Positions 26,096-59,890 are shown, numbered from the stretch's first letter. The stretch: 64,000 nt of DNA from Desulfobacteraceae bacterium UBA5616 (GCA_002423615.1 DIKO01000092.1:33367-97366); one strand, 5' to 3'. A program made the numbers and translations. Notes: generated by a model from the letters alone, not told the origin.

Positions 26096-27382
26096 ATGAC
26101 CGGACAGGAGTCATTGCTGGGAGATATTCGCATCCTTGATCTCACCGGCGAATCAGGTGTTTACTGTACAAAGCTTCTTGCGGATCTCGGAGCCGATGTA
26201 CTTCGCATCGAACCGCCCGGGGGGCACCCCATGAGAAACAAAGGGCCTTTTGTCCATGACGCGGTCGATCCGGAAAAGAGCCTTTACTGGTTTCACTTCA
26301 ACACCAGCAAGCGAGGCATCACACTGGATCTGGAAAATGCCGACGGTCGTGAAATTTTTAAAAAACTGGTCAAAACCGCGGATGTGCTCGTGGAAACCTT
26401 CCACCCCGGCTATCTGGATAAAATCGGTATCGGCTATTCCGTATTGAAAACAATCAACCCGAATCTGGTCCATACGGCCATCACCCCCTTTGGTCAAACC
26501 GGGCCCTATCGTGATTTTTTGGGACCCGATATTGTGGCCCAGGCCATGGGCGGGTTGATGTTCCTTGCCGGTTTTCCCGAAGACCCGCCTTACAAACTGG
26601 GTTGCTCGCAGGCGTATCACAGCGCTTCGGTTCATGCCGCTGCGGGAACCATGATCGCGCTGTATGCCAGGGATGATATCGGAATGGGCCAGTTTGTGGA
26701 TGTTTCACTTCAGGAATCCGTTCTCATGTCCCTGGAAACCGCCATGCAGCACTATGACATGAGAAAGGAAATCCGCCAGCGAATCGGCCGCGAAGAACCG
26801 GTAGTACCCGGAATCGGGCTTTATCCCTGCAAGGACGGATACGTATTTTCCTATGTCGTTGCCGGATTCGGTGCGGGCTGGGATGAAATCATCCGATGGC
26901 TGGACAATGAAGGGATGGCGGGTGACCTGAAAGATGAAAAATGGAACGAGGTGTGGGAAACCATCACCAATTACAAACAACTGGTCGCATTAGGCAACAA
27001 TCCCGCCAAACTGATGGCCATGCTGGAACAGTTTTACCACATCAGCGGCATTTTGAAAGCGTTTCTGGCCACCAGGACAAAGCAGCAGATATTCGACGAA
27101 GCGGCGGAAAGAAGAATCATGATCAACCCCGTCCAGAATGCAAAGGACCTTGTGGAAAGCCCGCAACTCAATGCCCTGGAATTTTTCAGCACTGTGGAAC
27201 ATCCGGAACTGGGCATGACCCTGAAATATCCCGGAGCGCCCTATTATCACATATCGGACACCCCATGGCGGATATCGCGACGCGCTCCTCTTTCAGGGGA
27301 GCACAATACCGAAATTTATGAAAAAGAACTGGGATTGACCCGGGAAGAGCTGCTGATTCTGAAAAACGAAGGGGCCATTTAG
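26096..27382 (+). CDS. Family III CoA-transferase (CaiB/BaiF/Frc family), 428 aa
   Basis: IRILDLTGESGVYCTKLLADLGADVLRIEPPGG N-terminal Rossmann-like block and GMGQFVDVSLQES central block. Confidence 0.85.
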   Translation: MTGQESLLGDIRILDLTGESGVYCTKLLADLGADVLRIEPPGGHPMRNKGPFVHDAVDPEKSLYWFHFNTSKRGITLDLENADGREIFKKLVKTADVLVETFHPGYLDKIGIGYSVLKTINPNLVHTAITPFGQTGPYRDFLGPDIVAQAMGGLMFLAGFPEDPPYKLGCSQAYHSASVHAAAGTMIALYARDDIGMGQFVDVSLQESVLMSLETAMQHYDMRKEIRQRIGREEPVVPGIGLYPCKDGYVFSYVVAGFGAGWDEIIRWLDNEGMAGDLKDEKWNEVWETITNYKQLVALGNNPAKLMAMLEQFYHISGILKAFLATRTKQQIFDEAAERRIMINPVQNAKDLVESPQLNALEFFSTVEHPELGMTLKYPGAPYYHISDTPWRISRRAPLSGEHNTEIYEKELGLTREELLILKNEGAI

Positions 27383-27393
27383 GAGGGGAAAAA

Positions 27394-28686
27394 ATGACGG
27401 ACAGGAAACTGCCTTTTGCGGGCATCAGGGTATGTGACTTCTCGTGGTTCGCCGCATCTCCGGTGGCGACCAAGCTGCTGGCCGACCATGGCGCCGAGGT
27501 GATCAAAATGGAATCGTCCTCTCATCCCGACGGCATCCGGTTGTCCAATCCCAAAACGCCGGGACTGGAGGACGTCAGTTTTAATGCCAGCGGATGGTTT
27601 AACAACATGAACACATCCAAATTGTGCATGGGGCTGAACCTGGCAAACCCCAGGGCCAGGGAAGTCTACGACCGCCTCATCATGGTGAGCGATATTGTAA
27701 TCGAGAATTTCTCCCCCCGGGTTAAAGACCGGATGGGGCTCAATTATGAGGATTATGCCAAAATCAAACCGGATTTAATATGGATCGATCAGCCCATGCA
27801 GGGGCTGAAAGGCCCGCACCGGAACCGTGCCGGGTTCGGTGCCGTCATAACGCCTCTCGGCGGCTTGAGCCACTTGTCCGGTTATCCCCATCGCCATCCC
27901 ATCGGCACGGGCACCAACTATACCGATTATGTCATAAACCCGGGGCATCTGGCCATAGCCATCATCGGCGCGTTGAGACGCCGACGTAAAACCGGGAAAG
28001 GCCAGCACATCGTCATGGCCCAGGTGGCCTCGGCGGCGGCCATTCTCGAGACTGCCGTTCTGGATTACACGGTCAACGATCGAATTCAGGAAAGAACGGG
28101 CAACCGTACTTCCGATGCCGCGCCCCATGGCTGTTACCCCTGCAAGGGCGAGGACAGGGAATGCACCGTAATGACAAGCCTCGGACCTGCAGCGTCCAAA
28201 AAAAATAACCGCTGGTGTGTCATCGCCGTAACCACCGATGAACAATGGAATTCCTTTTGTCATGTATTGGGAAATCCCCCTTGGACAAAAGAGGATAAAT
28301 TTTCAACGCTTTTAGCCAGAAAACAAAATGAAGACGAACTGGACGCAATGGTGGGGGATTGGACAAAATCCAGAACGCCGGAAGATATCATGATGACCCT
28401 CCAGCACGCAGGAGTCCCGGCAGGGGTGGTACAGGACGCTGAAGACATTCTGGTCCATGACCCCCAGCTAAGATCCAGGGGTTACTATGTTTATCTGGAT
28501 CACTGCGAAACCGGGAACAGCGCTTACGACGGCTTTGCTTTTAAATTGTCCGAGACCCCGGGTGTACTTTCCCGTCCCGCGCCCAGGATCGGTGAGCACA
28601 CGGAGCACGTGTGCAAAAACATTCTCGGAATGACGGAGGATGAAATCGACATGCTGGTGGTCGAGGAAGTGCTGGAAATCGGCTGA
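27394..28686 (+). CDS. Family III CoA-transferase, 430 aa (second of an adjacent pair)
   Basis: GIRVCDFSWFAASPVATKLLADHGAEVIKMES, TDYVINPGHLAIAIIGAL..KTGKGQHIVMAQ. It starts 11 nt after the stop of the previous CoA-transferase, preceded by GGAGG. Confidence 0.85.
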   Translation: MTDRKLPFAGIRVCDFSWFAASPVATKLLADHGAEVIKMESSSHPDGIRLSNPKTPGLEDVSFNASGWFNNMNTSKLCMGLNLANPRAREVYDRLIMVSDIVIENFSPRVKDRMGLNYEDYAKIKPDLIWIDQPMQGLKGPHRNRAGFGAVITPLGGLSHLSGYPHRHPIGTGTNYTDYVINPGHLAIAIIGALRRRRKTGKGQHIVMAQVASAAAILETAVLDYTVNDRIQERTGNRTSDAAPHGCYPCKGEDRECTVMTSLGPAASKKNNRWCVIAVTTDEQWNSFCHVLGNPPWTKEDKFSTLLARKQNEDELDAMVGDWTKSRTPEDIMMTLQHAGVPAGVVQDAEDILVHDPQLRSRGYYVYLDHCETGNSAYDGFAFKLSETPGVLSRPAPRIGEHTEHVCKNILGMTEDEIDMLVVEEVLEIG

Positions 28687-32919: not shown

Positions 32920-34119
32920 ATGGACTTTGAATTTACCAAAGAGCAGGAAGCATTACGGGAAGAATTTGATGAGTTTTTCAGAAAAGAGATGAAGCATGCT
33001 CCCAAGGAATGGGCGGAAGGCGGCCTCGAGGCGATGTATCACACCGATGAGGGATTTGCCTTTCACGATCAGATGAAAAAAAAGCTCGGCAAAAAAGGAT
33101 GGCTTTCCAGAGCCTGGCCCAAGGAGTACGGTGGACAGGACGCTCCACTGATCGAACAATTGATTTTCAACGAGGTTCACGCCTTTCACCGTGCACCGGG
33201 GGTTGACAATTTCGGTGTCGGCATGTTTGCTCCCACGCTGATGGTTGGGGGCACCGAGGAACAGAAGAAAAGGCTTCTGCCGCCTATTGCCAGGGGCGAA
33301 GTCCAGTACTGCCAGGGATGGAGCGAGCCTGATGCGGGTTCCGACCTGGCCAATCTGTCCACCCAGGCGGTAAGAGAAGGCGATTATTATATCGTCAACG
33401 GGCAGAAAACCTGGACCACCGGCGGTCACAGGGCGGATCATATGTTCCTCCTGGCCCGGACCGATCCCAATTCCACTCGAAGCCGCGGACTTTCCATTTT
33501 CAACGTCAAAATGGACCTCCCGGGAATTGAAGTTCGTCCAATTCTCTATATGGACAAGGGTCACATCACCAATGACGTCTATTTCAAGGATGTAAAAATT
33601 CACGCCTCCGAACTGGTGGGCAAGGAAAATGAGGGATGGGAGCTGACCCGGCAGACCATGAATTTTGAAAGATCGGGCGTAGCAGGTTTTGTTGAAGGCA
33701 AGCGAACAATAGCCGAACTCATCGATTATGCCAAGGCTCACAAACGCAACGGCAAAAAAATTTCCGAGGACCCGGTTACCCGGCAGAAAATTGCCAAACT
33801 GTTCATCGGTCTCGAAGTCGGACAGACGCTGGCTTACAGAATCAACTGGGAACAACAGAAAGGCGGACTCATCTTTGCCGCTTCGGCAGCCTCCGAAAGC
33901 AAGGTGTTCGGTTCGGAATTAAGCCAGCAGGTGGCTAACGTCTCCACGGAAGTTTTAGGCATGTACGGACAGCTGGAAAACTCCAAATGGGCCCCCATGG
34001 ACGGCAAGGCGGCAACCCACTATCAATTCTGTGTGGCTGCCAATATTTTTGCCGGCTCCAGTGAAGTGCAGAGAAACCTTATCGCCTGGGTCGGGCTGGG
34101 CTTGCCGAGAACGAAATAA
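32920..34119 (+). CDS. Acyl-CoA dehydrogenase family protein, class with C-terminal ...FAGSSEVQRNLIAWVGLGLPR
   Basis: MDFEFTKEQEALREE; QGWSEPDAGSDLANLST.A...GDYYIVNGQKTWTT. The position equivalent to the MCAD YEG catalytic Glu reads FAG. GGAGG precedes the Met at 32920. Confidence 0.85.
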   Translation: MDFEFTKEQEALREEFDEFFRKEMKHAPKEWAEGGLEAMYHTDEGFAFHDQMKKKLGKKGWLSRAWPKEYGGQDAPLIEQLIFNEVHAFHRAPGVDNFGVGMFAPTLMVGGTEEQKKRLLPPIARGEVQYCQGWSEPDAGSDLANLSTQAVREGDYYIVNGQKTWTTGGHRADHMFLLARTDPNSTRSRGLSIFNVKMDLPGIEVRPILYMDKGHITNDVYFKDVKIHASELVGKENEGWELTRQTMNFERSGVAGFVEGKRTIAELIDYAKAHKRNGKKISEDPVTRQKIAKLFIGLEVGQTLAYRINWEQQKGGLIFAASAASESKVFGSELSQQVANVSTEVLGMYGQLENSKWAPMDGKAATHYQFCVAANIFAGSSEVQRNLIAWVGLGLPRTK

Positions 34120-34195
34120 TGCCCCGCTTTTAAGCCCGTTTGAAATCAACATAGCGATCGAATTTCACGATGTTTTTTTATTCTGGGAGGATAAC

Positions 34196-35314
34196 ATGAA
34201 TCTTGATTTTACCAAGGAACAGGACATGCTTCGCAAATCCGTTGCGGAATTCCTGGCAAAAGAATGCCCTTTTGAAACCGTGAAGGAACTTGAAGAAAGC
34301 GAAGAGGGGTATAACAAAAAACAATGGAAAAAAATGGCCGAACTGGGATGGATGGAACTCTATTTTCCCGAAGAGTACGGCGGAATGGGCGACCCCATCA
34401 TGAACGTCATGATAATCATGGAAGAAATGGGGAAAAAAGCCTTTCCCAGCCCTTATTTTTCCACAGTGGTTCAATGCGGGCTTGTTCTTCTTGAAGGGGG
34501 ATCGGAAGATCAGAAAAAATCACTGCTGCCCAAAATCGCCGGTGGTAAGCTCCTGATGTCGCTCGCACAGTATGAGGAAGATGCCAGTTATGAACAAGCG
34601 GGAATCAATATGCCCGCCGAACCTGCAGGAGACCACTATGTTTTAAATGGAACGAAAATGTTTGCCCTGGATGCCAATGTTGCCGACAAACTGATTGTCG
34701 CCGCCAGGGTGAAGGACTCGGGAGTAACCTTGTTTCTGGTGGATGCCAAGGCACCCGGAATCACCACCACAAAAATGCCCACCATCGGCATGGACAATAC
34801 CTGTGAAATCATATTTAAGAATGTCAAGGTACCCAAAGAAGATGTAGTGGGTGGCCCTGGAAAAGGCTGGGAAATTCTGCAAAAAATGTTCCCCAAGGCC
34901 GTCATTCTGAAATGTGCGGAAATGGTGGGCGGTTGCAGGGAGACCGTTGACATGACAGCGGACTACGCCAAAAAACGTATCCAGTACGGTAAGCCCATCG
35001 GCTCGTTCCAGGCCATTCAGCATTATATGGCCAACATGCTGCTCGGATACGACACCAGCAGCAATTATCTGTACAAAGTCTGCTGGATGGTGCAGGAGGG
35101 AATGGATGTTTCAAAGGAAATCCATGCCCTGAAGGCCCATGTCAACGAGCAGTACAAATATATTACGGAAAGAGGCGTCCAGATCCATGGCGGCGTCGGC
35201 ACCACCCGTGAATTCAACATGGGTTTATTCTATCGTCGAGCCAAGGCCTATGAGTATGTCCTGGGAGATACGCAGTATCATTATGAAAAACTGGCGGACG
35301 CTTTGAACATGTAG
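34196..35314 (+). CDS. Acyl-CoA dehydrogenase family protein, second class (...RRAKAYEYVLGDTQYHYEKLA)
   Basis: MNLDFTKEQDMLRKSVAEFLAKE; YVLNGTKMF; IHGGVGTTREF. GGGAGG precedes the ATG at 34196. The upstream extension of the track ORF overlaps the previous gene and was rejected. Confidence 0.85.
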   Translation: MNLDFTKEQDMLRKSVAEFLAKECPFETVKELEESEEGYNKKQWKKMAELGWMELYFPEEYGGMGDPIMNVMIIMEEMGKKAFPSPYFSTVVQCGLVLLEGGSEDQKKSLLPKIAGGKLLMSLAQYEEDASYEQAGINMPAEPAGDHYVLNGTKMFALDANVADKLIVAARVKDSGVTLFLVDAKAPGITTTKMPTIGMDNTCEIIFKNVKVPKEDVVGGPGKGWEILQKMFPKAVILKCAEMVGGCRETVDMTADYAKKRIQYGKPIGSFQAIQHYMANMLLGYDTSSNYLYKVCWMVQEGMDVSKEIHALKAHVNEQYKYITERGVQIHGGVGTTREFNMGLFYRRAKAYEYVLGDTQYHYEKLADALNM

Positions 35315-35319
35315 GTAAA

Positions 35320-35352
35320 AGGTCCGGCCGGTCCAAAGGGCCGGCCGGACCT
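35320..35352. terminator. Bidirectional GC-rich terminator between convergent ACAD and hypB
   Basis: 12-bp stem AGGTCCGGCCGG / CCGGCCGGACCT with a 9-nt loop, followed by GATTTT on the plus strand and preceded by AAAA. Confidence 0.7.
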
Positions 35353-35370
35353 GATTTTCGACTCGGGGAA

Positions 35371-36042
35371 TTAAGCCTGGTATTCCCTGACCTTATTTTT
35401 GAGCCAGTTCGACCATTCTTCAACGCCCTGACCGGTTCTGCTGGACACCTCGAAGATGGCAATGCCCGGGTTCAGGGCTCTCACCCTTTCTTTCATGGCT
35501 TCTAGGTTGAAATCGCAGAGTTCCATGAAATCCATTTTGTTCACCACCAGCACGTCCACCGCCGCAAAGATGACGGGATATTTGAGGGGCTTGTCATCAC
35601 CCTCGGGGACGCTCAGAATCACCGCGTCAAGTGCAGCCCCGGTATCGACTTCGGCAGGGCAGACCAGGTTTCCCACATTTTCGATGAAAATCAGATCAAA
35701 ACCATCGGGGTTCATCGCATCCAGGCCTTTTGCCACCATCGTGGCATCCACATGACAAAATCCGCCTGTCTTAAGCTGAACGGCTTTTATACCCTGTGCC
35801 GCTATTTTTTCGGAGTCTACTTTGGAATCCAGATCCGCCTCAATGACGCCGATGGTCAAATCCTTTCTCAAGGCTTCGATGGTCTTTAAAATAAGACTTG
35901 TTTTACCGGACCCGGGGGACGCCATGAGGTTGACCATAAAGACTTTTTTAGACTTCAGGGATTGCTTCAACGCTTCAGCAGTCTTTTTATTATCCGCCAG
36001 TATCCCTTCCTTGACCTCGATCAGCCTGACCTCATCCATCAC
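35371..36042 (-). CDS. hypB: Hydrogenase nickel-incorporation GTPase HypB
   Basis: 223 aa. The P-loop is LMASPGSGKTSL; ENVGNLVCP and NKMD are G-domain motifs. The start (GTG at 36042 or ATG at 36039) overlaps the hypA stop. Confidence 0.9.
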   Translation of the reverse strand: MMDEVRLIEVKEGILADNKKTAEALKQSLKSKKVFMVNLMASPGSGKTSLILKTIEALRKDLTIGVIEADLDSKVDSEKIAAQGIKAVQLKTGGFCHVDATMVAKGLDAMNPDGFDLIFIENVGNLVCPAEVDTGAALDAVILSVPEGDDKPLKYPVIFAAVDVLVVNKMDFMELCDFNLEAMKERVRALNPGIAIFEVSSRTGQGVEEWSNWLKNKVREYQA

Positions 36043-36389
36043 AACACCTCCATGCTTTTAATAAAATATTCTCTCCCGGATATGAGTTTGTTGTTTTTTC
36101 CCTGGCATAAGGGGCAAACAATATCCTTCACATTTTTGATATCCACTTGAAAAGATTCCCGGCAGTCTTCACAATTCATCACCACCGGCATTCTCTCGAT
36201 TTTCAAAACAGCGCCGGCGGCTATGGAATCCTTGCTTAGATGATCGAAATACCGCTGCATCCACTCGTCTTCCAGATCGCTGAGTTCGCCGACCTGAAGA
36301 TGAATAGCCATAATTTTTTGAACATTGTTTTTGGCCCCATGGGACAAAGATACTTTTAAAATACTCTCTATTACCGGAAGCTCGTGCAT
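36039..36389 (-). CDS. hypA: Hydrogenase maturation nickel metallochaperone HypA
   Basis: 116 aa. MHELPV N-terminal Ni site (MHE) and zinc-ribbon cysteines CEDC...CPLC. Confidence 0.9.
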   Translation of the reverse strand: MHELPVIESILKVSLSHGAKNNVQKIMAIHLQVGELSDLEDEWMQRYFDHLSKDSIAAGAVLKIERMPVVMNCEDCRESFQVDIKNVKDIVCPLCQGKNNKLISGREYFIKSMEVL

Positions 36390-36750
36390 GTAAGACTTCT
36401 TTCATGGTGATGGGAAGGGTTGATTGCTGTATCATCGATCTTAAAAAATTGATATCAAAATAAAATCTGCATGGCAATGAAATTTTGTCCGTAAATCTTG
36501 ACACGCCGACAGGTTAAGGCTGAAGGGTTTTTTCTTTTCGTTCAGCCGCCCATGCCCGGTGAAGGTGAAGGAAAAGAGGGATCCGGATGCCGTGGCGGCA
36601 TACCCCATGACGAATTCGGAGAAGAGGTCAGGGCGGTGGTGCAGCCGTCAAACATGACTGAAGCAGGACCATAACTCGAAGACGAACTGCTAATGTCCGG
36701 GAAGTATGGATTCAGGAAAGGGGGACGCTTCACGGACCAGGGGCGGCACC

Positions 36751-37631
36751 TTATGCCCTCACATAACAGCCGTTTTGATGCAGGATAACCCCTTTTCGAA
36801 TGTTGCGTTCCAGGTGTTTGGCCATGATCGCCGCTTCACCGAAACGAAAAAAGGGTTCCCTTGCCCCCGGCCGGTTATATACGATGCCTGCATCAATAAT
36901 CTGTTCCAAATCCTTGGGCGAGTCCAGAAGCTCCAGAAGACGTTGTTCCCGCCGGCTGACAACCCCGATATAATCGTCCCATAAATCCCCGGGTTCTTTC
37001 TCGAAAACCCCGGTCTCATGGCAGGCGAGCCATACCTCAGCAGACATCTGCTTCAAAATTTCCACGGATGCCATTACCTCGTCAAGGTTCGAATCCCGGT
37101 CACCATACCAGGGGCCGAAACGGGTCAAATCATAGTCTCCCAGAAACAGCACATTGGGTTCCCTGAAGAAAAACGACAGATGTCCCGGTGTGTGACCGGG
37201 AGTGGATATCACGTCTACCGTTACGTTGCCGAGGTCGAGGGTTTCTCCGGGTTTTAAAAAACGCTCGGGGGTCCGGGGCTTGAAATGGAATTGGTGTTTC
37301 ATCGTGTTTCGCCATTCATCCCGAAAGTCGCCACCCATTCCATAGGCATCCAGAAACAACTCTATATCGGACAGGGGCGCCGCATCTGCTTCAGACACCC
37401 ACAGGGGCACATCATCGAACAGATCCAGGTCCGCAATATGGTCCTCGTGCCAATGGGACAGCCATACCCGATCAACACCGGATTCCTCCTTCAAACGGAT
37501 CAGCCTCTCCCGGTCGGATGCCGGGTCGATCAATATTTTCGAGCCTTCAATATACAGCGAGTGGCAGTATGGATATTTGCCGTTTTTTTTCCGGGTATGA
37601 ACCGTATCGGGCCGAATGTTCTTTCTTCCAT
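36751..37631 (-). pseudogene. MBL-fold metallo-hydrolase with the reading frame broken at an A8 run (frameshift, assembly error or -1 recoding)
   Basis: The downstream frame holds the HxHxDH motif (LSHWHEDH), TPGHTPGH and LACHE. Manual translation from the ATG at 37631 (TAAATG junction with the upstream CoA-transferase stop) gives MEERTFGPIRFIPGKK, then hits the A8 run (plus-strand T8 at 37583-37590). A shift to the -1 frame continues NGKYPYCHSLYIEGSKILIDPASD..., a typical MBL N-terminus. Confidence 0.7.
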
Positions 37632-38849
37632 TTAATAAATCACCTTTTCCGTTCTCAATCGTTCAATTTCCTCCGGAGCCATCCCCAGGTAATTTTGAAA
37701 GACGTCGTCGGTATGCTGACCGAGCATCGGGCCGGGAGAGCGGAATTGGGCGGGTGTCTCGGTAAGCCGCCAGGGAGGGCCGATAACCCAGTTTTTACCG
37801 ATGACCGGATGGTCCACCTGGCGGAAAACACCTCTCTCTTTCAAGTGGGGGTCTTCAAAAAGCGCTTCGCTGGACAATGACGGCGACGCAGCGACCCCGA
37901 CTGCCTGGAGTCGGTTCATGACATCATAATAATCCTGATCCTGCGTCCATTCGGTGATAATCCTGTCCATCTCCTCTTCATTGGCTTTTCTGGCAGGCAT
38001 GTCCTTGAACCGTTCATCTCCGGCGAGTTCGGGTTTCCCCATCGCATTGCAGAGGCTTACCCATTCTTCCTCGGATGCCGTGACGATGCTGATCCATTTG
38101 TCATCGCCCTTGCAGCGATAGCAGTTATGCGGCGCCATCACGTCATCCTTGTTCCCTTTTCTCACCTGGATTCTGCCATTCATGACATAATCCATGAAGA
38201 TGTCTCCGGCAAAAACCGCGATGGCTTCCTGGGATGCCAGATCGATATATTGGCCCTCCCCGGTCTGTCGGAGATGATACAGAGCCGCCAGAATAGCAAA
38301 GGCGGATGTACACGCGCTTCTTAAATCAATGGATCCCATGAAATTGCTGGGAGGCCAATCCGGATATCCCGTGATATGGGGGAGGCCTGAAAGGGCTGCA
38401 AATGTGGGGGCATACCCCACATATTCCCGGTCCGGACCTGTCTGACCGCAGGCCGACGAGGAAAGATAAATAATGTCGGGTTTCAATTCTCTGACGACAT
38501 CGTATCCCAGTCCCAACCTGGGGATGACGCCGGGACGCATGTTTTCCATCACCACATCGCTTATTGCGATGAGTTTCTTGGCGATCTCCACGGCCTGGGG
38601 CTTCTTGAGGTTTAAACTGACACTCAATTTGTTGAGATTGAGATTGTTGAACACCTCGGATTCATCCAGGGTTTCAAATTTTCTGCCGGTGGTAAAGGAA
38701 AGATTTCGGGAGTGGTCCGGCCGTTGACGGCTTTCCACCTTTATGACTTCGGCGCCTAAAAATCCCAACAGACAGGTTGCATAGGGGCCTGCCCAGGCGG
38801 AAGTAAATTCAACAACTCTGATGGTTTTCAGGGGTCCTAAATTCTCCAT
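37632..38849 (-). CDS. Family III CoA-transferase, 405 aa
   Basis: IRVVEFTSAWAGPYATCLLGFLGAEVIKVES, SIDLRSACTSAFAILAALYHLRQTGEGQYIDLASQEA. Confidence 0.85.
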   Translation of the reverse strand: MENLGPLKTIRVVEFTSAWAGPYATCLLGFLGAEVIKVESRQRPDHSRNLSFTTGRKFETLDESEVFNNLNLNKLSVSLNLKKPQAVEIAKKLIAISDVVMENMRPGVIPRLGLGYDVVRELKPDIIYLSSSACGQTGPDREYVGYAPTFAALSGLPHITGYPDWPPSNFMGSIDLRSACTSAFAILAALYHLRQTGEGQYIDLASQEAIAVFAGDIFMDYVMNGRIQVRKGNKDDVMAPHNCYRCKGDDKWISIVTASEEEWVSLCNAMGKPELAGDERFKDMPARKANEEEMDRIITEWTQDQDYYDVMNRLQAVGVAASPSLSSEALFEDPHLKERGVFRQVDHPVIGKNWVIGPPWRLTETPAQFRSPGPMLGQHTDDVFQNYLGMAPEEIERLRTEKVIY

Positions 38850-38861
38850 GTCGCCTCCTGT

Positions 38862-40082
38862 TCAAATAACCGCGGATTCTTTAAGCCGTTTAATATCATC
38901 CCGGCTGATTTTTAATTCTTCAAGATAGATCTGTTCATTATGCTCCCCCAAAGCGGGTGCAGGTCTATGAATCTGCCAGGGTGTTTTTGAAAACCGGTAT
39001 GGGGACGACGGAAATTTCGAAATATGGCCCAGTGCCGGGTGATCCATGGGAATAAAAAATTCCCGCGCGTTGAACTGGGGAGAGTTTACGATATCCTCCG
39101 CGGTATTGGTCGGGGCGATGGGAACACTCAAAGCCTGCCCCTTTCTGAAAATTTCCTCTTTTGTCTTGTCTTTTGCCCATTTCAGAATTTCGGTCTGAAT
39201 CCTTTCCACATTTTCCATCCGCTCAATTTTGTCCAGGCACCAGTCTTCCCTGGACCATGCCGGATCCCCCATCAATTTAAGAAAATTTTTCCACTGATGT
39301 TCCTCGGGCGTGATCAGAACCACATAGCCGTCTTTACAGGGGATCACCCCGCCCGGATTTTTATTTTGGACGGAACCCAGCCGGGTCATGTTTACACCGC
39401 TGTTGGGAAAACATACACTCTCCACCCTCTGCATGGACATCAGCGCTTCGAGTTTCGACATGCCGATATACTGCCCTTTTCCGGACAGAGTACGCCAGAA
39501 AAGAGCCGCCATAACGGCAATGGAGGCAACCAGCCCCGGATCGAAATTCCCGTTGTTCCCCCCGACCTTGACCGGCGGCCGGGTATCGTCCAGCGATACC
39601 AGCGGCAGCATATAGCCCTGCCCGCTCATCTGGGAAATATTCAACTGATAGGCCTTGTGATTTCTGTAGGGACCGGTTTGCCCGAAAGGGGTGATGGCGG
39701 CCATGATCAGACCCGGATGAATCTTCTTTAATTCATCATATCCCAGCCCCATTTTCTCCATTTCACCCGGTTGGTGATCTTCGATCAGGATATCAGCCCG
39801 TTGAACGAGTTTCCTGAAAATTTCCGCGCCTTGTTTTTTTTCGGGGTCAAGTGTAATCCCCAGCTTGTTGGTATTGATATAGATGAACAACCCGGATTTT
39901 TCAGGATCGGGCTGATCGTTTTGAAATGGGGGCTTTCTTCTTGCGCCGTCCCCGGTTCCCGGCGGTTCGATTTTGATGACTTCCGCACCCAGATCCGCCA
40001 TGAGTTTGGTGCAGTAAGCGCCGCTGACGGTGGTGCAGTATTCAAGGATTTTTACACCTTTAAGAGCTGTTGGAGGTTTCAT
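38862..40082 (-). CDS. Family III CoA-transferase, 406 aa (first of an adjacent pair in transcription order)
   Basis: VKILEYCTTVSGAYCTKLMADLGAEVIKIEPPGTGD, NFDPGLVASIAVMAALFWRTLSGKGQYIGMSKLEA. It lies 12 nt upstream of the next CoA-transferase. Confidence 0.85.
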   Translation of the reverse strand: MKPPTALKGVKILEYCTTVSGAYCTKLMADLGAEVIKIEPPGTGDGARRKPPFQNDQPDPEKSGLFIYINTNKLGITLDPEKKQGAEIFRKLVQRADILIEDHQPGEMEKMGLGYDELKKIHPGLIMAAITPFGQTGPYRNHKAYQLNISQMSGQGYMLPLVSLDDTRPPVKVGGNNGNFDPGLVASIAVMAALFWRTLSGKGQYIGMSKLEALMSMQRVESVCFPNSGVNMTRLGSVQNKNPGGVIPCKDGYVVLITPEEHQWKNFLKLMGDPAWSREDWCLDKIERMENVERIQTEILKWAKDKTKEEIFRKGQALSVPIAPTNTAEDIVNSPQFNAREFFIPMDHPALGHISKFPSSPYRFSKTPWQIHRPAPALGEHNEQIYLEELKISRDDIKRLKESAVI

Positions 40083-40185
40083 TGACTCACTTCTCCTATA
40101 TCCATGACAGATGAAGCGTCATTACGAGGTAAGATAAATACAAAAACCGAAAGAACCATCTATCATCAATCGGTGTTTTGAACGG

Positions 40186-41349
40186 TTAGGCTCTCATGGA
40201 AAGAAACAAGGGCTCATAGCGATCAAGCTCCATGGCAATGCGTTCCTTGTGCACACCGTTTGCGCCGCAATCGTTTTCATTGGCTTTGGACCTCAGCAAA
40301 TACAGGCTGATATCCATCTCTTCGGTCCATCCGATGGCGCCATGGATATACACTGCATCGTAGCAGACCCGGTGATAGACATTATTGGCCTTGACCTTGA
40401 CCATGGAGTTCAGCATCGTGTCCGGCTTTCCCTGGTCCATGTACCAGGCCGCTTCATAAACCAGGTTTTTCAGGCCATCGACCTCGGTCAGCATATTCAC
40501 CAGGCGGTGTTGAAGCGATTGAAAGGATCCGATGGGCTTGCCGAATTGATACCTTTCCTTGGCATAACGGGTGGCGATATCCAGAGCCGCCTGAACCCCG
40601 CCGGACATCTCGGCGGATTTTAATACCGCACCATACTGCAGAACATAATCCACGATCTGCCATCCTTTATCAATTTCACCGACGACATTTTCCTTGGATA
40701 CGCCGACATTGGCGAACCGCACTTCGCATTTCATATCCCTGGCGGCAGTGGGAATTTCTTCGATTTCGATTCCTTTTGATTTTGCATCCACCAGAAAAAG
40801 GGTGACGCCCTCTTCAGGGTTTTCGCTTTTTTTTGTCCGACCCGCCACCAGAAGATGGGTCGCGGAATTGGCATAGGGGACGAAAAGTTTAACGCCGTTC
40901 AGTACAAATCCGTCGCCCTGAGGGGTTGCGGCAAGCTGAATATCGGCTGCGCTGTAGTCCGCCTTTGCTTCGTTAACGGCATAGCTCGTAATTTCGCCTT
41001 TTTCCGCTATTTTTTTCAGAAGGTTTTTTTTCTGAACCGGGGTGCCGAATTTCTCAATGGCCGGTGCCGACTGACAGACCGTGGTAAAAAAAGGCCCGGG
41101 GACGATGTTTCGTCCTATTTCTTCCATCACGATCATCAGGTCCAGGAAACTGCCTTCGGCTCCGCTGTATTCCTCGGGGATGACCAGTCCCATGTAACCC
41201 AGATCCGCCAGTTTTTTCCACATTTTGGGATCATATCCCTTTTTATCGGTTTTCAGTTCCCTGATTTTCTCCTTGGGGCATTCTTTTTCAAAGAATTCCC
41301 TGATCGATTTTCTAATAAGTTCCTGATCTTTAGTAAGTCCGAAATCCAT
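40186..41349 (-). CDS. Acyl-CoA dehydrogenase family protein, second class
   Basis: MDFGLTKDQELIRKSIREFFEKE; FVLNGVKLFV; IHGAIGWTEEMD. The start was moved to the Met preceded by AAAGGAGAA, 16 codons inside the track ORF. Confidence 0.85.
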   Translation of the reverse strand: MDFGLTKDQELIRKSIREFFEKECPKEKIRELKTDKKGYDPKMWKKLADLGYMGLVIPEEYSGAEGSFLDLMIVMEEIGRNIVPGPFFTTVCQSAPAIEKFGTPVQKKNLLKKIAEKGEITSYAVNEAKADYSAADIQLAATPQGDGFVLNGVKLFVPYANSATHLLVAGRTKKSENPEEGVTLFLVDAKSKGIEIEEIPTAARDMKCEVRFANVGVSKENVVGEIDKGWQIVDYVLQYGAVLKSAEMSGGVQAALDIATRYAKERYQFGKPIGSFQSLQHRLVNMLTEVDGLKNLVYEAAWYMDQGKPDTMLNSMVKVKANNVYHRVCYDAVYIHGAIGWTEEMDISLYLLRSKANENDCGANGVHKERIAMELDRYEPLFLSMRA

Positions 41350-41479
41350 GGTTTTCTCCTTTATGCGTAAGGGGCGAGAAGCATTCCGATACGGCAATCA
41401 CATACCGGTTGCACGAGCCCTTGTTTTTTTGTATCGGAAGTTCCGATGTAAACGCAAACCCATTTTCAACCTGACCGTA

Positions 41480-42676
41480 TCAATAACCCCTTGGTAGCCC
41501 CAGACCGAACTGAGCCACAATGTTACGGTTGGTGTCCGTCGTGCCTGCGGCGGCCCACATTCCGGGTGTTGAAAAATAGATCCATTCCATCAGGCCTCTG
41601 AGGCGCTGAAGACCGGCATTTTTTTCCAACGGATCGACCTGGGCGAAAGCGCCGATGATTTCGGTTCCAATCTGCCCTACTTTTTCAAGAATCAGGTCGT
41701 TTAAGGCCTTGTCCCGGGAAGGTTCGTGAATGACCATTTCACCCTTCGCCACTTTCCATGCGGCTTCCATGGCGAGGATTCTTAAGGTTTTAATATCAAT
41801 GGCAAGGTCCACAAGCTTATGACGAATTTCCGGTTTGGCAAACGCGCCTGTTTCCTTGGCGTAATGAATCAATTCATCCAGCATCCTTCGGGTCATGGCG
41901 CTGCTGCTGATGGCGACCCCCCGTTCAAAGGCCAGGGCCTGCATTAACTGAGCCCACCCGTTGTTCTCCTTGCCGACCAGATTTTCAGCCGGAACATGGA
42001 CGTCTTTAAAAAAAAGCTCATTGAAAACATGGGCACCGATAATATTGGGAATGGGTCGTATGGTGACTCCGGGGCTTTGCAGGTCCACGATGATCAGGCT
42101 GATACCGTCATGTTTGCGTTTGGCATTGGGATCCGTCCGGCAAGCCAGCCAGCACCATCTTGCCCGGTGCCCGGCACTGTTCCAGACTTTCTGGCCGTTG
42201 ATGATATATTCATCTCCGACCCGTTTGGCGGAACATTGAAGGCTGGCCAGATCGCTGCCGGAATCCGGTTCGCTGTACCCCGTACACCAAACCCCGTCAT
42301 CTTCTCCGGAAGCGATCTTGGGCAGGTATTTTTTCTTCTGCTCCTCAGTACCGAAAAGCATCAGGGAAGGTCCTACCCAGGCGGTACCGCTCACGCCCAT
42401 TCCCATTCCCGGAATACCCCAGTACCCGGATTCTTCGCCCATGACGACACGTTCCCATACCGAGGCCCCCATGCCGCAATGCTCCTTGGGCCATGACATG
42501 GTCAACCATCCGATATCGGACAGCTTTTTGGCCGTTTCCATGGCAAACGCCCAGTCTTCATCGTAGTGTTCATCCACGAACAATCCCATCTTGATGTCGG
42601 TGGGGATGTTGTCCTTGACGAATTCCCTGATTTTTTTCCTCAGCTCTTCCGCTTTATCATCGAATTTAAAATCCAT
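41480..42676 (-). CDS. Acyl-CoA dehydrogenase family protein, class ending ...AAAGTTDTNRNIVAQFGLGLPRGY
   Basis: 398 aa. TGYSEPDSGSDLASLQC.A...GDEYIINGQKVWNS. It has the same architecture and C-terminal GLGLPR tail as the 32920-34119 product. Confidence 0.85.
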   Translation of the reverse strand: MDFKFDDKAEELRKKIREFVKDNIPTDIKMGLFVDEHYDEDWAFAMETAKKLSDIGWLTMSWPKEHCGMGASVWERVVMGEESGYWGIPGMGMGVSGTAWVGPSLMLFGTEEQKKKYLPKIASGEDDGVWCTGYSEPDSGSDLASLQCSAKRVGDEYIINGQKVWNSAGHRARWCWLACRTDPNAKRKHDGISLIIVDLQSPGVTIRPIPNIIGAHVFNELFFKDVHVPAENLVGKENNGWAQLMQALAFERGVAISSSAMTRRMLDELIHYAKETGAFAKPEIRHKLVDLAIDIKTLRILAMEAAWKVAKGEMVIHEPSRDKALNDLILEKVGQIGTEIIGAFAQVDPLEKNAGLQRLRGLMEWIYFSTPGMWAAAGTTDTNRNIVAQFGLGLPRGY

Positions 42677-42770
42677 GCACCTATAACCTCCTCTGTCCTG
42701 GAAAAATGTTATGTTTAGTCCAACCTAAGTTCGGGGTTTTCATCTGAAGGTATCCAATATTTGCTGGAGA

Positions 42771-42799
42771 AATATTGAACAATCGCTCAGGGTTGTCAA
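42771..42799 (-). promoter_or_regulatory. Sigma70-like promoter of the ACAD-ACAD-CoAT-CoAT-MBL operon with an overlapping inverted repeat
   Basis: Minus strand: TTGACA (42799-42794), 17 nt, AATATT (42776-42771). The inverted repeat CAATATTT-N7-AAATATTG (42755-42762 / 42770-42777) overlaps the -10 element. Confidence 0.5.
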
Positions 42800-43035
42800 G
42801 ATGTTTTTTAGTTCTTTCTTGATCGGCATCAATGGGGATTTCGGGTGTCTTTTTTTCGGGCCTCGAGGTTTTTCTTCATGCCTCATAAAATTTAAAGAAG
42901 CGAAGAAATCCCCTTCGCAGGATTTCCACTACAGCCCAATATTAAGACTTGACATAATTGAAAATAAAATTAAGGTTCGTTACACATAATTTAACTCCAC
43001 CCCTACGTTTACCCCAAAAGGAGTCCCATGTGAGC

Positions 43036-44148
43036 ATGCGTTATCTGGCGACAGCCTTCTTAATAAGCATTTCCTGCCTGGCCTGCCTGGATAAAGAAAG
43101 CGATAACAAGGCTGGAAAAACGAAAACCGTTCGAATTCTCGAACACGCTCCAGCGGAGGTTGTGGTTTCCGAGGTTAAAACCGGACCCATCTACAAGATC
43201 TATACCTCGGTTGGAAACGTCACTCCGAAAGATACATCGAGGATCTTTCCCAAAGTGGGGGGAAAAATATCCGAGGTTTTCGTTGAAGAAGGCGATCTTG
43301 TCAAAAAAGGACAATTGCTGCTTCAGATCGACACCTTTGATTATACACGGGTTGTCGAGAATGCGACAGCGGTCATGAACCAGGCCGGATCCAATCTGGA
43401 TAAAGCGAACCGGGACTATGACCGGATTGAAAAACTCTATTCGGACAAGGCCGTCTCAAAACAACAGCTGCAGGACATGAAAACCGCCCTGGATCTGGCC
43501 CGCTTCGCCTATGATCAGGCCCTGACCGCCCTAAAAAAGGCCAATGACGATCTTAAAGAATGCGGCGTGAGAGCCCCTATCGACGGCATGGTGACCACCA
43601 AGATGGTGAATCCGGGAGAACTCACCAGCCCCCAGGCAATGGTATTTGTCATCATGCAAATGGGAACCGTTGAAATCGAAGTCAATCTTCCTGAAGAAGC
43701 CTTCGGTTATGTCAGAGAGGGTGAAAATGCCTTTGCATCCTTCGACGCCATACCGGATACCGCCATGAAGGGCGTCATCACAAAAATGTACCCCACCATT
43801 GATCCCTTGAGCAGAACCATTAAAATCGTCATTACTGTGGACAATCCGAACCTCGAAATACGGTCCGGCATGACGGCTAGGACAAAAATAATTGAAATTG
43901 CAAGGGAAAATTCAATTTTTGCCCCCAAGGCGGCATTGATACCCGTTGAAGACCAATATATTTGCTATCGCATTAATTCTGGAAAAGTGGAAAAAACAAC
44001 TGTGGATGTGGGCATAATCGGAGATGAGGTTTTTGAAGTCAAAAAAGGCCTTGCCCTCGGCGATAAGGTCGTGGTGCAAGGCGTCACCGGTTTGAGGGAC
44101 GGCATGAGCGTCAAGGTGGTTCCCCTGAATCCTAAAGGCAACCCATAG
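43036..44148 (+). CDS. RND efflux periplasmic adaptor (membrane fusion protein), lipoprotein-type
   Basis: MRYLATAFLISISCLAC lipobox-like N-terminus and a biotinyl-lipoyl-like hairpin (GGKISEVFVEEGDLVKKGQLLLQID ... VRAPIDGMVT). AAAGGAG lies upstream. Confidence 0.85.
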   Translation: MRYLATAFLISISCLACLDKESDNKAGKTKTVRILEHAPAEVVVSEVKTGPIYKIYTSVGNVTPKDTSRIFPKVGGKISEVFVEEGDLVKKGQLLLQIDTFDYTRVVENATAVMNQAGSNLDKANRDYDRIEKLYSDKAVSKQQLQDMKTALDLARFAYDQALTALKKANDDLKECGVRAPIDGMVTTKMVNPGELTSPQAMVFVIMQMGTVEIEVNLPEEAFGYVREGENAFASFDAIPDTAMKGVITKMYPTIDPLSRTIKIVITVDNPNLEIRSGMTARTKIIEIARENSIFAPKAALIPVEDQYICYRINSGKVEKTTVDVGIIGDEVFEVKKGLALGDKVVVQGVTGLRDGMSVKVVPLNPKGNP

Positions 44149-44158
44149 AGGAATACCC

Positions 44159-47100
44159 ATGTCCATACCGGAATTTTCAGTAAATCGCCGGATTACGGTC
44201 ACCATGCTGATCATGATCATCACCCTTTTCGGGTTCCTGTCTTTTACCAACCTCGGCCTGGACATGCTTCCCGAGCTCGAGTTTCCCTTCGTTTCCGTTG
44301 TAACCGGGTATGAGGGGGTCGCTTCCGAGGAAATAGAAACGCTGATCACCAAGCCCATTGAAGAATCCGTCGGCATGGTAAAAGGCATCAAAAATATCAA
44401 TTCCGTATCTTCTGAAGGACTTTCAGGCGTATACATCGAATTTGAATGGGGAACCGATCTGGATGTCGCCGCACAGGATGTCAGGGATTCGTTAAGCTGG
44501 GTCGTTGATTTTCTACCCGAAGATGCCGACACCTCCATGGTATTGAAATTCAATTCTGCCAGCATGCCCGTCATCGAGTACGGGGTCACCGGCATCGACG
44601 ATACCATCCGGATGCGGGAATACCTCGATAAAACCGTCAAACCCCGGCTGGAAAGGCTCAATGGCGTTGCCGCCGCCTTTATCTTCGGGGGAAAGGAACG
44701 TGAAATTCAGGTACTGGCCGATCCCGACAAACTAAAGGCCACCGGCCTTTCCCTCAATGACGTCGCCCTGGCCGTTCAGGCAGGAAACCTCAATGTCTCC
44801 GGCGGCCATGTGGAAACCCTGAAAAAAGAATATCTCGTCAGGACACAAGGGTATTTCGAAGACATCAAACAAATTGAAAACAGCGTCGTAACGGTGACGG
44901 ACAAGGGAAAGACCGTTTACGTCAGGGATGTGGCGATTGTTCAGGATACGTACAAGGAAAAAAGAGGGTTTGAAAATACGAACGGCAGTCCTTCGGTCTT
45001 GATCGATATCTTCAAGCAATCGGGATTCAATACGCTTGAAGCGGTCAATAACGTCAAGGCCGAGCTGAAAAAATTGGAAAAAGATCTCCCGAAAGAACTG
45101 GAATTTCATTTGACATTCGATCAGGGAGATTTTATCGAACGTTCCATCTCGTCAACGGGAAATTCAGCCCTGCAGGGAGGGCTGATCGCCGTTGCCGTGG
45201 TATTTGTATTCCTCAGAGCCATCCGTCCGACCCTCGTCATTGGTCTTGCGATTCCCCTCTCCATCATAACCACCTTTATCGGGATGAAGGCATTCGATTA
45301 TACATTCAATATCATGACACTCGGGGGCATTGCACTGGGGGTCGGCATGCTGGTGGACAACGCCGTGGTGGTCATTGAAAATACCTTCCGGCATCTTGAA
45401 AAAGGCGACCACAGGGAAAAGGCCGCAGTCCTGGGTACAAATGAGGTGGGGCTTGCCATCACCGCCAGCACGTTGACAACCATGGCGGTATTTGTGCCGT
45501 TGAGCCTGTCCCAGAGCATCGCCGGGAAATTAGCGCGTCCGCTGTCCCTCACGGTCTGTATCTCCCTGCTGGCCTCTCTTTTTGTGGCGATCACCATCAT
45601 TCCGGCGATTTCCGCCACTATTTTTAAAAAAGACAAGTCCTTTTACGCGAACATTCAGGGAAAGGGATGGGTCAGCTACGTCGAAAAGGGATATGCCGGG
45701 TTGTTAACCCGATGCATTAAAATTCGCTGGATCGTCCTGCCGGCGGCTTTTGGAGCCCTTGCGGTGAGCATTTTTTTAACCCCTTTTCTCGGCACCGAGT
45801 TCATGCCCCGTGAGGACGTATCCATCGGCAGACTCAACATCACGCTGCCCGAAGGCGCCGTTCTTGCCGAAACAATTCATATCAGTCAACAGATTGAAAG
45901 ACTCTTCCGGGATGAAAAGGATATTGAAACCTGTTTAAGCTTCGGCGGTATCACTGCCGGGGCCAAATTCCAGGCCGCCATGGGAGACAGGCTGGATGCG
46001 GTAAACAATGCCACTGTATTCGCCCGGTTTAAGGAACGGGAGTTCAGGGAAAGCTCAACGGATGAAATATTGAATAGAATAAGGGAAAAGCTTCCAGATC
46101 TGAAGGGCGTGGAGTATAATTTTGTCGACATGGCCGGGATGTTTTTCGGGACCGGAGAATCTCCCGTGGAAATCAATCTCTATGGACCGGACCTTGTCGT
46201 GCTGGATCAAATCAGTTCTCAAATAATGGATAAAATATCGAAAATCTAAGGATTGAAAGATATTGAAAAATCACTGAAAAAACGGCAGCCGGAGGTTCAT
46301 ATCGTTGTTGACCGTGAAAAAGCGGCCAAATTGGGATTGACCGTTTATCAAATTGCATCAACCGTAGAAACCGCAGTCCTGGGTAAAGTGATCAGCAGGT
46401 ACCATGAAGGCGGAGATGAATACGATATCCGGGTACGCCTGCAGGCGCCTTATCGCAGGAGCTTTGACAATATCATGAATCTGACGGTTCGATCTCCACT
46501 GGGATTCACCCTTCCCCTTTATCAGGTCACGCGCATGGATAAGGAATTCGGTCCAACGGCCATTAAGAGAAAAAATCAGGATCGTCTCGTTTCCATCACC
46601 GGAAACAATTTTCATCGGGATCTGGGAACTATTGTGAAGGAAATCCAGTCCGCCATCGACGAAATAGAGATGCCTGAAAGATATTCATGCGAAATCGGAG
46701 GCACTTATGAGGACATGCAAACTTCTTTTCAGGATCTCAGCAAGGCTTTCATCGTTGCCGTTATCCTGATTTACATGATTATGGCAGCCCAATTTGAATC
46801 TTTGGCCCAGCCCCTCATTGTTATGTTTACCATTCCCCTATCTTACATCGGCGTGATCCTCGGTCTGGGAATCACGGGGAAAACCCTTTCAGTACCGTCC
46901 TTCATGGGTCTGATTATTTTAATGGGCATCGTGGTGAACAACGGAATCGTCATGATTGACTACATCAACCGCCTGAGGAAAGGCGGCATGATAAAAATCG
47001 ACGCCATCGTTCAGGGGGCATCTGTCCGGTTGCGCCCCATCCTGATCACATCCATTACGACCATATGCGGTGTTCTACCCATGGCATTTTCCACAGGAGA

Positions 47101-52041: not shown

Positions 52042-52124
52042 GCGGACATTTATTGGATAGGGAATTGCACTGATAATGTCCTCGAACCTTAATGGAAGCA
52101 TATGAGCTATTCTATTTTATTGAA

Positions 52125-52910: not shown

Positions 52911-52914
52911 AATT

Positions 52915-54709: not shown

Positions 54710-54737
54710 TGCGTTTCCGCCTTTCCGTTATCGCCGC

Positions 54738-55580: not shown

Positions 55581-55646
55581 GAAACATTCTCCAATGCGAT
55601 GGCGTATTGATTTCGGGTTTCCGGATAGCCGCTCTGACGGCGGACC

Positions 55647-56804: not shown

Positions 56805-56835
56805 TGGACGACTCCTTTCCGTTCAGACGATTGAA

Positions 56836-58173: not shown

Positions 58174-58250
58174 TTCAGGGTTCCTTTCCAATGGTTATAA
58201 AAATCGAACTTAAAGTTGATTTTTGGGGAATAATTTCTTTTTATTATTTT

Positions 58251-59852: not shown

Positions 59853-59890
59853 CCGATTAACCTCTGCAAGGTTTTAAATCGGAGGTGGAC

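Follow-up and report, generated by a model that had tools for sequence, protein, structure and literature searches.

Paired acyl-CoA dehydrogenase and CoA-transferase genes in a putative catabolic operon of an uncultured Desulfobacteraceae bacterium

What is the role of a minus-strand run of five genes that joins two acyl-CoA dehydrogenases (ACADs), two class III CoA-transferases and a metallo-beta-lactamase (MBL)-fold hydrolase, and do its paired genes encode subunits of heteromeric enzymes? These questions are raised by a locus at positions 42799-36751 of a 64-kb stretch of DNA from the uncultured Desulfobacteraceae bacterium UBA5616 (GCA_002423615.1 DIKO01000092.1:33367-97366), a relative of sulfate reducers; the whole stretch is called the window hereafter. 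A preliminary description, made from the sequence alone, had read the five genes as an operon, had pointed to heteromeric precedents for both gene pairs and had assigned the combination to no described pathway; on this last point we agree, and a literature search for a described pathway joining BbsEF-like pairs with heteromeric ACADs gave nothing useful. Our reading, which we hold at a probability of roughly 55%, is that this is a catabolic operon acting on a carboxylic acid via its CoA thioester. Its parts appear to be new members of known enzyme kinds, and the heteromer reading is well supported by the logic of the sequences. The five genes, in order of transcription, are as follows.

ACAD-L, 41480..42676, minus strand: 398 aa, all three Pfam ACAD domains; putative catalytic alpha subunit of a heteromeric acyl-CoA dehydrogenase
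ACAD-S, 40186..41349, minus strand: 387 aa, all three Pfam ACAD domains; putative non-catalytic beta subunit
CoAT1, 38862..40082, minus strand: 406 aa, PF02515 (CoA_transf_3) over the full length; class III CoA-transferase subunit of the chain-A (E-type) class
CoAT2, 37632..38849, minus strand: 405 aa, PF02515 (CoA_transf_3) over the full length; chain-B (F-type) class, with the canonical Asp
MBL-fold hydrolase gene, 36751..37631, minus strand: Pfam Lactamase_B, frame interrupted at a run of eight A residues (A8); restored product of 293 aa

These ACAD and CoA-transferase genes are referred to as pair a, and their plus-strand paralogs in the same window as pair b (ACAD-L_b, ACAD-S_b, CoAT1_b and CoAT2_b). 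The window sequence represents a near-clonal population that is also present in several public metagenome assemblies; three of them were 100% identical to it across the shared 4-21 kb, and one further assembly showed 4 single-nucleotide polymorphisms (SNPs) in 19 kb. According to a genome scan anchored on CoAT2, the closest genome-resolved relatives are metagenome-assembled genomes (MAGs) of uncultured Desulfobacteraceae and of Desulfatitalea, the nearest named genus among the related loci. Related loci are labelled L005, L006, L008, L012-L035 and L090-L095, to which the P0002 contig is added.

CoAT2 found its best PDB match in chain B of benzylsuccinate CoA-transferase (9fn0_B), with 219-220 bits versus 91-99 bits for chain A, and CoAT1 scored 162-174 bits against 9fn0_A. 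This grouping of CoAT2 with chain B and of CoAT1 with chain A bears out the heterotetrameric BbsEF enzyme as a precedent, as had been proposed beforehand. The identities to the 9fn0 chains, 30-34% for pair a and 36-39% for pair b, are low enough in pair a to argue for a substrate other than (R)-benzylsuccinate. The canonical nucleophile Asp is invariant in the position-2 subunits of all orthologs and is not carried by the position-1 subunits, where the same column holds Tyr (9fn0 chain A and CoAT1_b), His (L095) or, in the CoAT1 clade, a variable residue that is Asn in CoAT1 itself; two residues past this column, an Asp is invariant throughout the CoAT1 clade. A paper stating which BbsEF subunit bears the catalytic Asp was not found, and the assignment is that of our own alignment. 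In the genome-wide scan anchored on CoAT2 (44-82% identity), CoAT1 was located directly upstream of CoAT2 at all 28 orthologous genome loci, always in this order; these loci are distributed over four phyla (Desulfobacterota, Chloroflexia, one Lachnospiraceae MAG, and Amycolatopsis acidicola). Adjacency, whose consistent absence the preliminary description had named as grounds for giving up the pairing, was thus found at every locus. Together with the subunit-specific similarity it constitutes strong indirect evidence that CoAT1 and CoAT2 are the subunits of an obligate heteromer, and a physical complex of the two would be expected. At one locus, L006, the CoAT1 and CoAT2 orthologs are separated by a 148-aa gene of the hotdog fold (YiiD_C/DUF4442, 6260-6706), which hints, though weakly, at thioester hydrolysis accompanying the transferase.

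The ACAD pair showed a comparable division between its two members. ACAD-L best matched Tcur3483 (199 bits) and ChsE4 (172 bits), both alpha subunits of alpha2beta2 ACADs, in end-to-end alignments that include the C-terminal GLGLPR and a Glu at the column of ChsE4 E247. It has a SEPDSGSD loop and a Glu in helix G (E251), and no Glu at the position of E367 in butyryl-CoA dehydrogenase (BCD, 1buc). ACAD-S, which shares 29% identity with ACAD-L, has Cys at the BCD E367 position, no helix-G Glu and a degenerate loop, NEAKADYS. The same division was observed in a joint alignment, where SEPDxGSD and the helix-G Glu were present in 3 of 3 ACAD-L-type sequences, and where in all 9 ACAD-S-type sequences the SEPxxGSD loop was degenerate, two residues were missing at the place of the helix-G Glu, and the BCD E367 column held Cys or Leu. 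In alpha2beta2 ACADs the flavin ring, the substrate and the catalytic Glu are all located in the alpha subunit, and the beta subunit touches only the ADP-ribose part of FAD (PMC11153573, PMC8399759). One Glu per pair combined with the loop pattern therefore matches the published alpha2beta2 signature (PMC11153573, PMC8399759), and the steroid side-chain precedent suggested in the preliminary description is backed by both the ACAD-L alignments and these residue patterns. ACAD-S aligned best with ordinary butyryl-CoA dehydrogenases (166 bits), versus 137 bits for Tcur3481 and 95 bits for ChsE5. Among ACAD-L genes of at least 55% identity, 7 of 7 are followed by an ACAD-S gene, and in a metagenome scan anchored on ACAD-L, which is rough and dominated by distant ACADs, about half of the full-length ACAD-L-class genes adjoin an ACAD-S-like gene. 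With regard to NCBIfam, pimC_large (TIGR03204) was the best match of ACAD-L with 224 bits (cutoff 623.85), and ACAD-S scored 177 bits against pimD_small (TIGR03203), also below its cutoff of 652.7; likewise below the cutoffs, pimC_large pointed to ACAD-L_b and pimD_small was the best match of ACAD-S_b. We infer that ACAD-L and ACAD-S associate as a physical hetero-oligomer.

The arrangement on the plus strand of the window was compared with that of the operon. The two paralogous pairs are located as follows.

CoA-transferase pair b, 26096..28686, plus strand: CoAT1_b at 26096-27382 and CoAT2_b at 27394-28686
ACAD pair b, 32920..35314, plus strand: ACAD-L_b at 32920-34119 and ACAD-S_b at 34196-35314, downstream of ATP-grasp_5 and nitroreductase genes

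CoAT1_b scored 261 bits against 9fn0 chain A and 127 against chain B, and CoAT2_b scored 293 bits against chain B and 94 against chain A, so that pair b is more 9fn0-like than pair a; ACAD pair b has the same alpha/beta residue pattern as pair a. The recurrence of the class order and of a CoA-transferase pair on the plus strand had been noticed before, as had an ancient duplication that preserved the order, and both are upheld here: between pairs the identities are 36% (L/L), 43% (S/S), 36% (CoAT1/CoAT1) and 36% (CoAT2/CoAT2), compared with 28-29% within pairs. Since CoAT1 is nearer to CoAT1_b (36%) than to CoAT2 (28%), both window pairs trace back to an ancestral enzyme that already had two subunits encoded in this order.

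The coordinates given earlier for the first four genes were correct, all four are intact, and the Pfam assignments agree. From ACAD-L onwards the intergenic gaps are 130 nt, 103 nt, 12 nt and 0 nt; the statement that the genes are tightly coupled applies to CoAT1, CoAT2 and the MBL gene, and not to the first two gaps. ACAD-S has an ATG start and an AAGGAG ribosome-binding site, an AGGAGG lies inside the 12-nt spacer between CoAT1 and CoAT2, and TAAATG at 37634-37629 represents the CoAT2 stop abutting the ATG of the MBL gene. No terminator-like sites were found in the intergenic gaps of the operon, and a single transcript would be expected to cover the five genes. A terminator-like hairpin with a T-rich tail (42900-42927, minus) closely precedes the operon promoter, within the intergenic region that separates the operon from the divergent operon of a resistance-nodulation-division (RND) pump.

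Upstream of ACAD-L, two features overlap.

Conserved promoter block, 42749..42800, minus strand: 52 bp with the -35 box TTGACA (42799-42794), a 17-nt spacer of the TGAGCGATTGTTC type, the -10 box AATATT (42776-42771) and about 22 nt downstream
Perfect 8-bp inverted repeat, 42755..42777, no strand assigned: CAATATTT-N7-AAATATTG, overlapping the -10 box

The promoter TTGACA-N17-AATATT (42799-42771), proposed in the preliminary description, is indeed present and was the top sigma-70-like match (10/12) in the 7.8 kb from 35300 to 43100, a region where the number of such matches is at chance level (12, versus 8.3 +/- 2.3 in shuffles). The 52-bp block is nearly invariant upstream of ACAD-L in L008, L006 and L005, surrounded by unalignable intergenic DNA, and its core TTGTTCAATATTT occurs in the window only here and in those three loci, with none in the other 165 loci. 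An operator-like inverted repeat had also been described over the -10 box. The perfect repeat exists, and the palindrome is not kept in the orthologs, where the downstream arm reads AAATGATG in all three promoters (6/8 match), so perfection is specific to the window. AATATT is its own reverse complement, and the repeat is therefore largely a second copy of a -10-like hexamer. A conserved palindromic operator was rejected, as each of the three orthologs carries a different local inverted repeat, and a regulon marked by the repeat or by the promoter core was rejected as well, given that no second copy was found in the window or before other genes of the related loci. Constraint on the whole block seems to exceed the needs of a bare promoter, which fits a regulator site, though the palindrome would not be its conserved element.

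The fifth gene differs from the other four in being interrupted. The MBL ATG does abut the CoAT2 stop, as had been pointed out; however, the frame opened by this ATG (37631) is disrupted 14 codons past the start and ends after 34 codons, so that the gene is not intact. The long MBL open reading frame (ORF; 36751-37533 and upstream) lies in the -1 frame, and the two frames join at the A8 run at 37583-37590. At this site the three orthologous loci have GGAAAGAAAAAC, GGGAAAGACAAC and GGCAAAAAGAAC; compared with these, the window carries a 1-nt deletion. An assembly error at the homopolymer was rejected, since the identical A8 recurs in four other assemblies, including the strain with 4 SNPs. The A residues form an in-phase A_AAA_AAA heptamer, and the protein would be restored there either by a -1 slip of the ribosome or by the insertion of one A during transcription. 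A programmed -1 frameshift is less likely, because the orthologs are without run or frameshift and the downstream RNA structure is ordinary (z = 0.36), and the lesion is more likely a recent plain frameshift mutation, perhaps a leaky one.

MBL homologs are intact proteins of about 294 aa, spanning the N-terminus that is encoded by the short frame in the window. The window copy keeps 106 of 108 conserved columns, with two conservative deviations that are within the range of intact homologs, and its metal ligands (HWHEDH of the HxHxDH type, TPGH, D166/D168 and H205) are invariant in 33 homologs. A model of the P0002 ortholog (pLDDT, a predicted confidence score, of 94) presented an alpha-beta/beta-alpha MBL core with a C-terminal helical extension. 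Foldseek placed TTHA1429 and LACTB2 on top, followed at similar scores by Burkholderia MBL proteins, YcbL and PqsE (TM-scores of 0.6-0.7). In sequence searches the protein scored 48 bits against GSH_gloB (cutoff 200.8), and matched YcbL with E = 3e-13. Of the two activities suggested earlier, a thioesterase is no more than plausible, and a ring-opening hydrolase found no support.

How these modules may work together can be formulated as follows. CoAT1 and CoAT2 would together form a class III CoA-transferase, obligately heteromeric and of the same type as benzylsuccinate CoA-transferase, which would transfer CoA to the acid from a donor, for example succinyl-CoA. ACAD-L, binding the FAD isoalloxazine and the substrate and providing the Glu base, would introduce an alpha,beta double bond together with the non-catalytic beta subunit ACAD-S, and would pass the electrons to electron transfer flavoprotein (ETF). 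The MBL-fold protein would act as an accessory hydrolase, most plausibly a thioesterase, and hydration and thiolysis would be encoded elsewhere. The reaction direction, the CoA donor, the substrate and the MBL activity given here are all presumed.

Several observations weigh against such a catabolic operon with heteromeric enzymes. Every NCBIfam equivalog cutoff was missed by a wide margin. CoAT1 has near-equal scores to 9fn0_A, 4ed9 and other family members, and it may be catalytic itself, given the invariant Asp near its active-site column. Internal promoters could lie in the 130- and 103-nt gaps. The MBL family is large, with more than 2,000 matches at about 55-60% identity and with members elsewhere in unrelated contexts, and in most of the related genomes (L012-L014, L015-L035, L090-L092) the CoAT pair has neither the ACAD pair nor the MBL gene beside it, so the functional tie between the modules is weak. 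Lastly, three lesions within 11 kb, namely the MBL frameshift, a ligase relic and an RND nonsense codon, suggest relaxed selection on the region.

The distribution of the modules across genomes leads to an alternative in which an autonomous CoAT pair, a beta-oxidation ACAD pair and a general-purpose MBL protein were juxtaposed by recent rearrangement and do not form one pathway. Only the closest relatives, namely L005, L006, L008 and the P0002 contig, have the full five-gene order (MBL 68-84% identical). In Desulfatitalea, CoAT2 is 75-77% identical and the CoAT pair has no adjoining ACAD pair or MBL gene; in L090 (CoAT2 79% identical) the pair stands alone among housekeeping genes; and in L091 (71%) it directly adjoins hypA, at a locus otherwise syntenic with the window over hypAB, ACAD pair b, nitroreductase, ATP-grasp and cytochrome c3. 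The commonest neighbor of the CoAT pair across genomes is not an ACAD gene but the alpha gene of an ADP-forming acyl-CoA synthetase (ACD), which adjoins CoAT1-CoAT2 orthologs at nine loci including a Chloroflexia MAG (L016-L020, L024, L031, L091 and L092), and this adjacency suggests a functional partnership. Homologs of ACAD pair a, for their part, are found in clusters of the beta-oxidation type, with ligase, hydratase and thiolase genes in the Desulfatitalea locus L014, where the CoAT pair lies 5 kb away and the hydratase is an enoyl-CoA hydratase, and with 3-hydroxyacyl-CoA dehydrogenase and hydratase genes in L093. MBL homologs at about 60% identity in unrelated contexts point the same way. 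Since the full order is confined to the closest relatives and the CoAT pair elsewhere has neither partner, the five-gene operon is, as judged from these comparisons, a recent lineage-specific join of an old autonomous CoAT module with an ACAD module, and not an ancient conserved unit. At least four diverged relatives (74-85% protein identity) have nevertheless retained the order, with the conserved promoter only before ACAD-L, and contigs of matching length among the MBL and the CoAT2 matches suggest that about seven more carry both genes. In addition, ACAD-L homologs of 46-47% identity lie convergent to a CoAT1/CoAT2-like pair in L094 (1601-5325) and L095 (2099-5798), an independent ACAD-CoAT association at greater divergence, and no ACAD-S partner was detected for either homolog; L095 has an acetoacetate-decarboxylase-family gene upstream. 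For these reasons we regard a purely accidental assembly as unlikely.

The lesions in turn raise the possibility that the cluster is a decaying remnant, non-functional in this organism. One of them is a short feature next to the MBL gene.

AMP-forming acyl-CoA ligase relic, 36597..36692, plus strand: 96 bp; tblastn match of 69% over 32 aa to residues 435-466 of the L006 ligase

Relatives L005, L006 and L008 have an intact ligase between the MBL gene and hypA, and the comparison indicates that this gene was deleted in the lineage of the window. Furthermore, an in-frame TAA at 46247-46249 splits the divergent RND (ACR_tran) pump gene into ORFs of 696 aa and 338 aa, where the L008 ortholog has Arg in an intact 1034-aa gene; the TAA is present in all near-identical assemblies, and all three lesions are fixed in these five assemblies. 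In this genome the five-gene arrangement is partly eroded, through the frameshift in the MBL gene and the loss of the adjoining ligase. A remnant without function nevertheless appears very unlikely to us, as the four upstream genes are intact and keep every family-invariant residue, the MBL protein is off at only the two conserved columns mentioned above, no more than intact homologs are, and its frame could be restored at the in-phase heptamer. More specific is the proposal of a bbs-like module for a fumarate-addition product (an aryl- or alkyl-succinate) in anaerobic hydrocarbon degradation, with CoAT1/CoAT2 as succinyl-CoA:substituted-succinate CoA-transferase and the ACAD as dehydrogenase of the succinyl-CoA derivative. 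Benzylsuccinate CoA-transferase is the closest solved relative of CoAT2, the automatic name given by JGI to a CoAT2-type protein is 'BbsF subunit', and the sample record names of the identical contigs (MLSB...) hint, as far as a name can, at hydrocarbon-impacted sites. BbsEF followed by an ACAD, BbsG, is also known pathway logic (PMC10818641). Set against this, pair a is only 30-34% identical to the 9fn0 chains, the ACAD here is an alpha/beta pair of the ChsE4/PimC type whereas BbsG is a homotetrameric ACAD from a single gene, orthologs occur in Lachnospiraceae and Amycolatopsis, and no glycyl-radical enzyme, BbsH/CD/AB-type or Zn-finger thiolase genes were found among the annotated ORFs of the 64-kb window. 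We consider a bbs-like module highly unlikely, and retain the catabolic operon acting on a CoA thioester as the best explanation of this locus.

Alpha2beta2 ACADs have so far been tied mainly to steroid degradation and to bulky substrates. A broader suggestion, in which we place little confidence, is that CoAT1-CoAT2 defines a widespread, uncharacterised clade of obligately heteromeric class III CoA-transferases outside fumarate addition (spanning Desulfobacterota, Chloroflexia, Lachnospiraceae and Amycolatopsis), where only the second subunit has the canonical nucleophile, and that it was recruited here with an alpha2beta2 ACAD to activate and oxidise bulky alicyclic or branched (naphthenic-type) acids anoxically. 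If the heteromer reading of the two pairs is right, alpha2beta2 ACADs, known from steroid and pimelate degradation, and BbsEF-type transferases, known from toluene degradation, would be common building blocks in uncultured anaerobes, and automatic 'BbsF' labels in metagenomes would not be evidence of toluene degradation. The residue patterns also provide a simple sequence rule for telling catalytic from auxiliary subunits, by the ACAD Glu present in one member only and the canonical CoA-transferase Asp present in one member only. In other respects the operon represents ordinary acyl-CoA metabolism.

ACD genes are also present in the window itself.

ADP-forming acyl-CoA synthetase genes, in the window: three alpha genes and one beta gene (ATP-grasp_5), at 17005-18432, 59885-61315, 61326-62804 and 31384-32061

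An IS66-family transposase ORF of 359 aa (62826-63905, minus), near the window edge, adjoins two convergent ACD-alpha genes. A 643-aa fusion at 19560-21491 (minus) combines an acetyl-CoA hydrolase/transferase, similar to butyryl-CoA:acetate CoA-transferase, with a C-terminal GNAT acetyltransferase. A four-gene set resembling benzoyl-CoA reductase/2-hydroxyacyl-CoA dehydratase, composed of two HGD-D subunits and two BcrAD-type ATPases and scoring below the NCBIfam cutoffs throughout, occupies the minus strand at 53930-58191, 11 kb from the operon. It adjoins the ETF alpha/beta genes of the window (52092-53895), a single ACAD (49819-51009), a TetR regulator (49093-49785) and a DUF7064/7065 protein (48024-49064). 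Because of this set the thn operon of anaerobic naphthalene degradation was considered as a model, and it was rejected because its transferase ThnP belongs to family I and ThnO is homotetrameric (PMC11659651).

Compared with known systems, the CoA-transferase resembles BbsEF in being a class III enzyme of two paralogous subunits from adjacent genes, with position 1 similar to chain A, position 2 similar to chain B and the canonical Asp only in the chain-B type. It differs from BbsEF in having no bss/bbs context in the window and, in the CoAT1 clade, a variable canonical column with the invariant Asp two residues later. In the steroid alpha2beta2 ACADs (ChsE4-ChsE5 = FadE26-FadE27, PDB 4x28; Tcur3481-Tcur3483, PDB 6wy8; IpdE1-IpdE2), as here, two ACAD genes are adjacent with the larger one first, the large subunit has the helix-G Glu and a GLGLPR-type C-terminus, and the small subunit is without the catalytic Glu. 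The identity to the window pair is only about 30-35%, ACAD-S is closer to butyryl-CoA dehydrogenases than to Tcur3481/ChsE5, and the host here is from a strictly anaerobic lineage of Desulfobacteraceae, with no genes for steroid degradation in the neighborhood of the pair. PimC/PimD (TIGR03204/TIGR03203) share the large-then-small order and are the best or near-best NCBIfam matches; with 224 and 177 bits versus about 624 and 653, however, the window genes are not equivalogs, and no pimA/B/E/F-type operon surrounds them. A literature search on PimCD biochemistry gave nothing useful. In the caiABCD/fixABCX and carABCDE systems, which work in the reductive direction, the transferase and the ACAD are each encoded by one gene. 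These systems share with the window a class III CoA-transferase, an ACAD-family flavoenzyme, an AMP-forming ligase (here in the relatives) and ETF nearby, and they differ in that the window has a two-gene transferase and a two-gene ACAD and has lost the ligase. As to the MBL-fold protein, the thioester hydrolases glyoxalase II, YcbL and PqsE have the HxHxDH motif and the fold core in common with it, while its sequence similarity to glyoxalase II and YcbL is weak and the gene is frameshifted here; its top structural matches, TTHA1429 and LACTB2, are uncharacterised in function or RNases. Since the bbs context test and the pim cutoff tests fail, the operon belongs to neither the bbs nor the pim system. 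By analogy with both, it most likely works in a similar manner: CoA would be transferred to a (di)carboxylic acid, and a flavin-dependent alpha,beta-dehydrogenation would come next.

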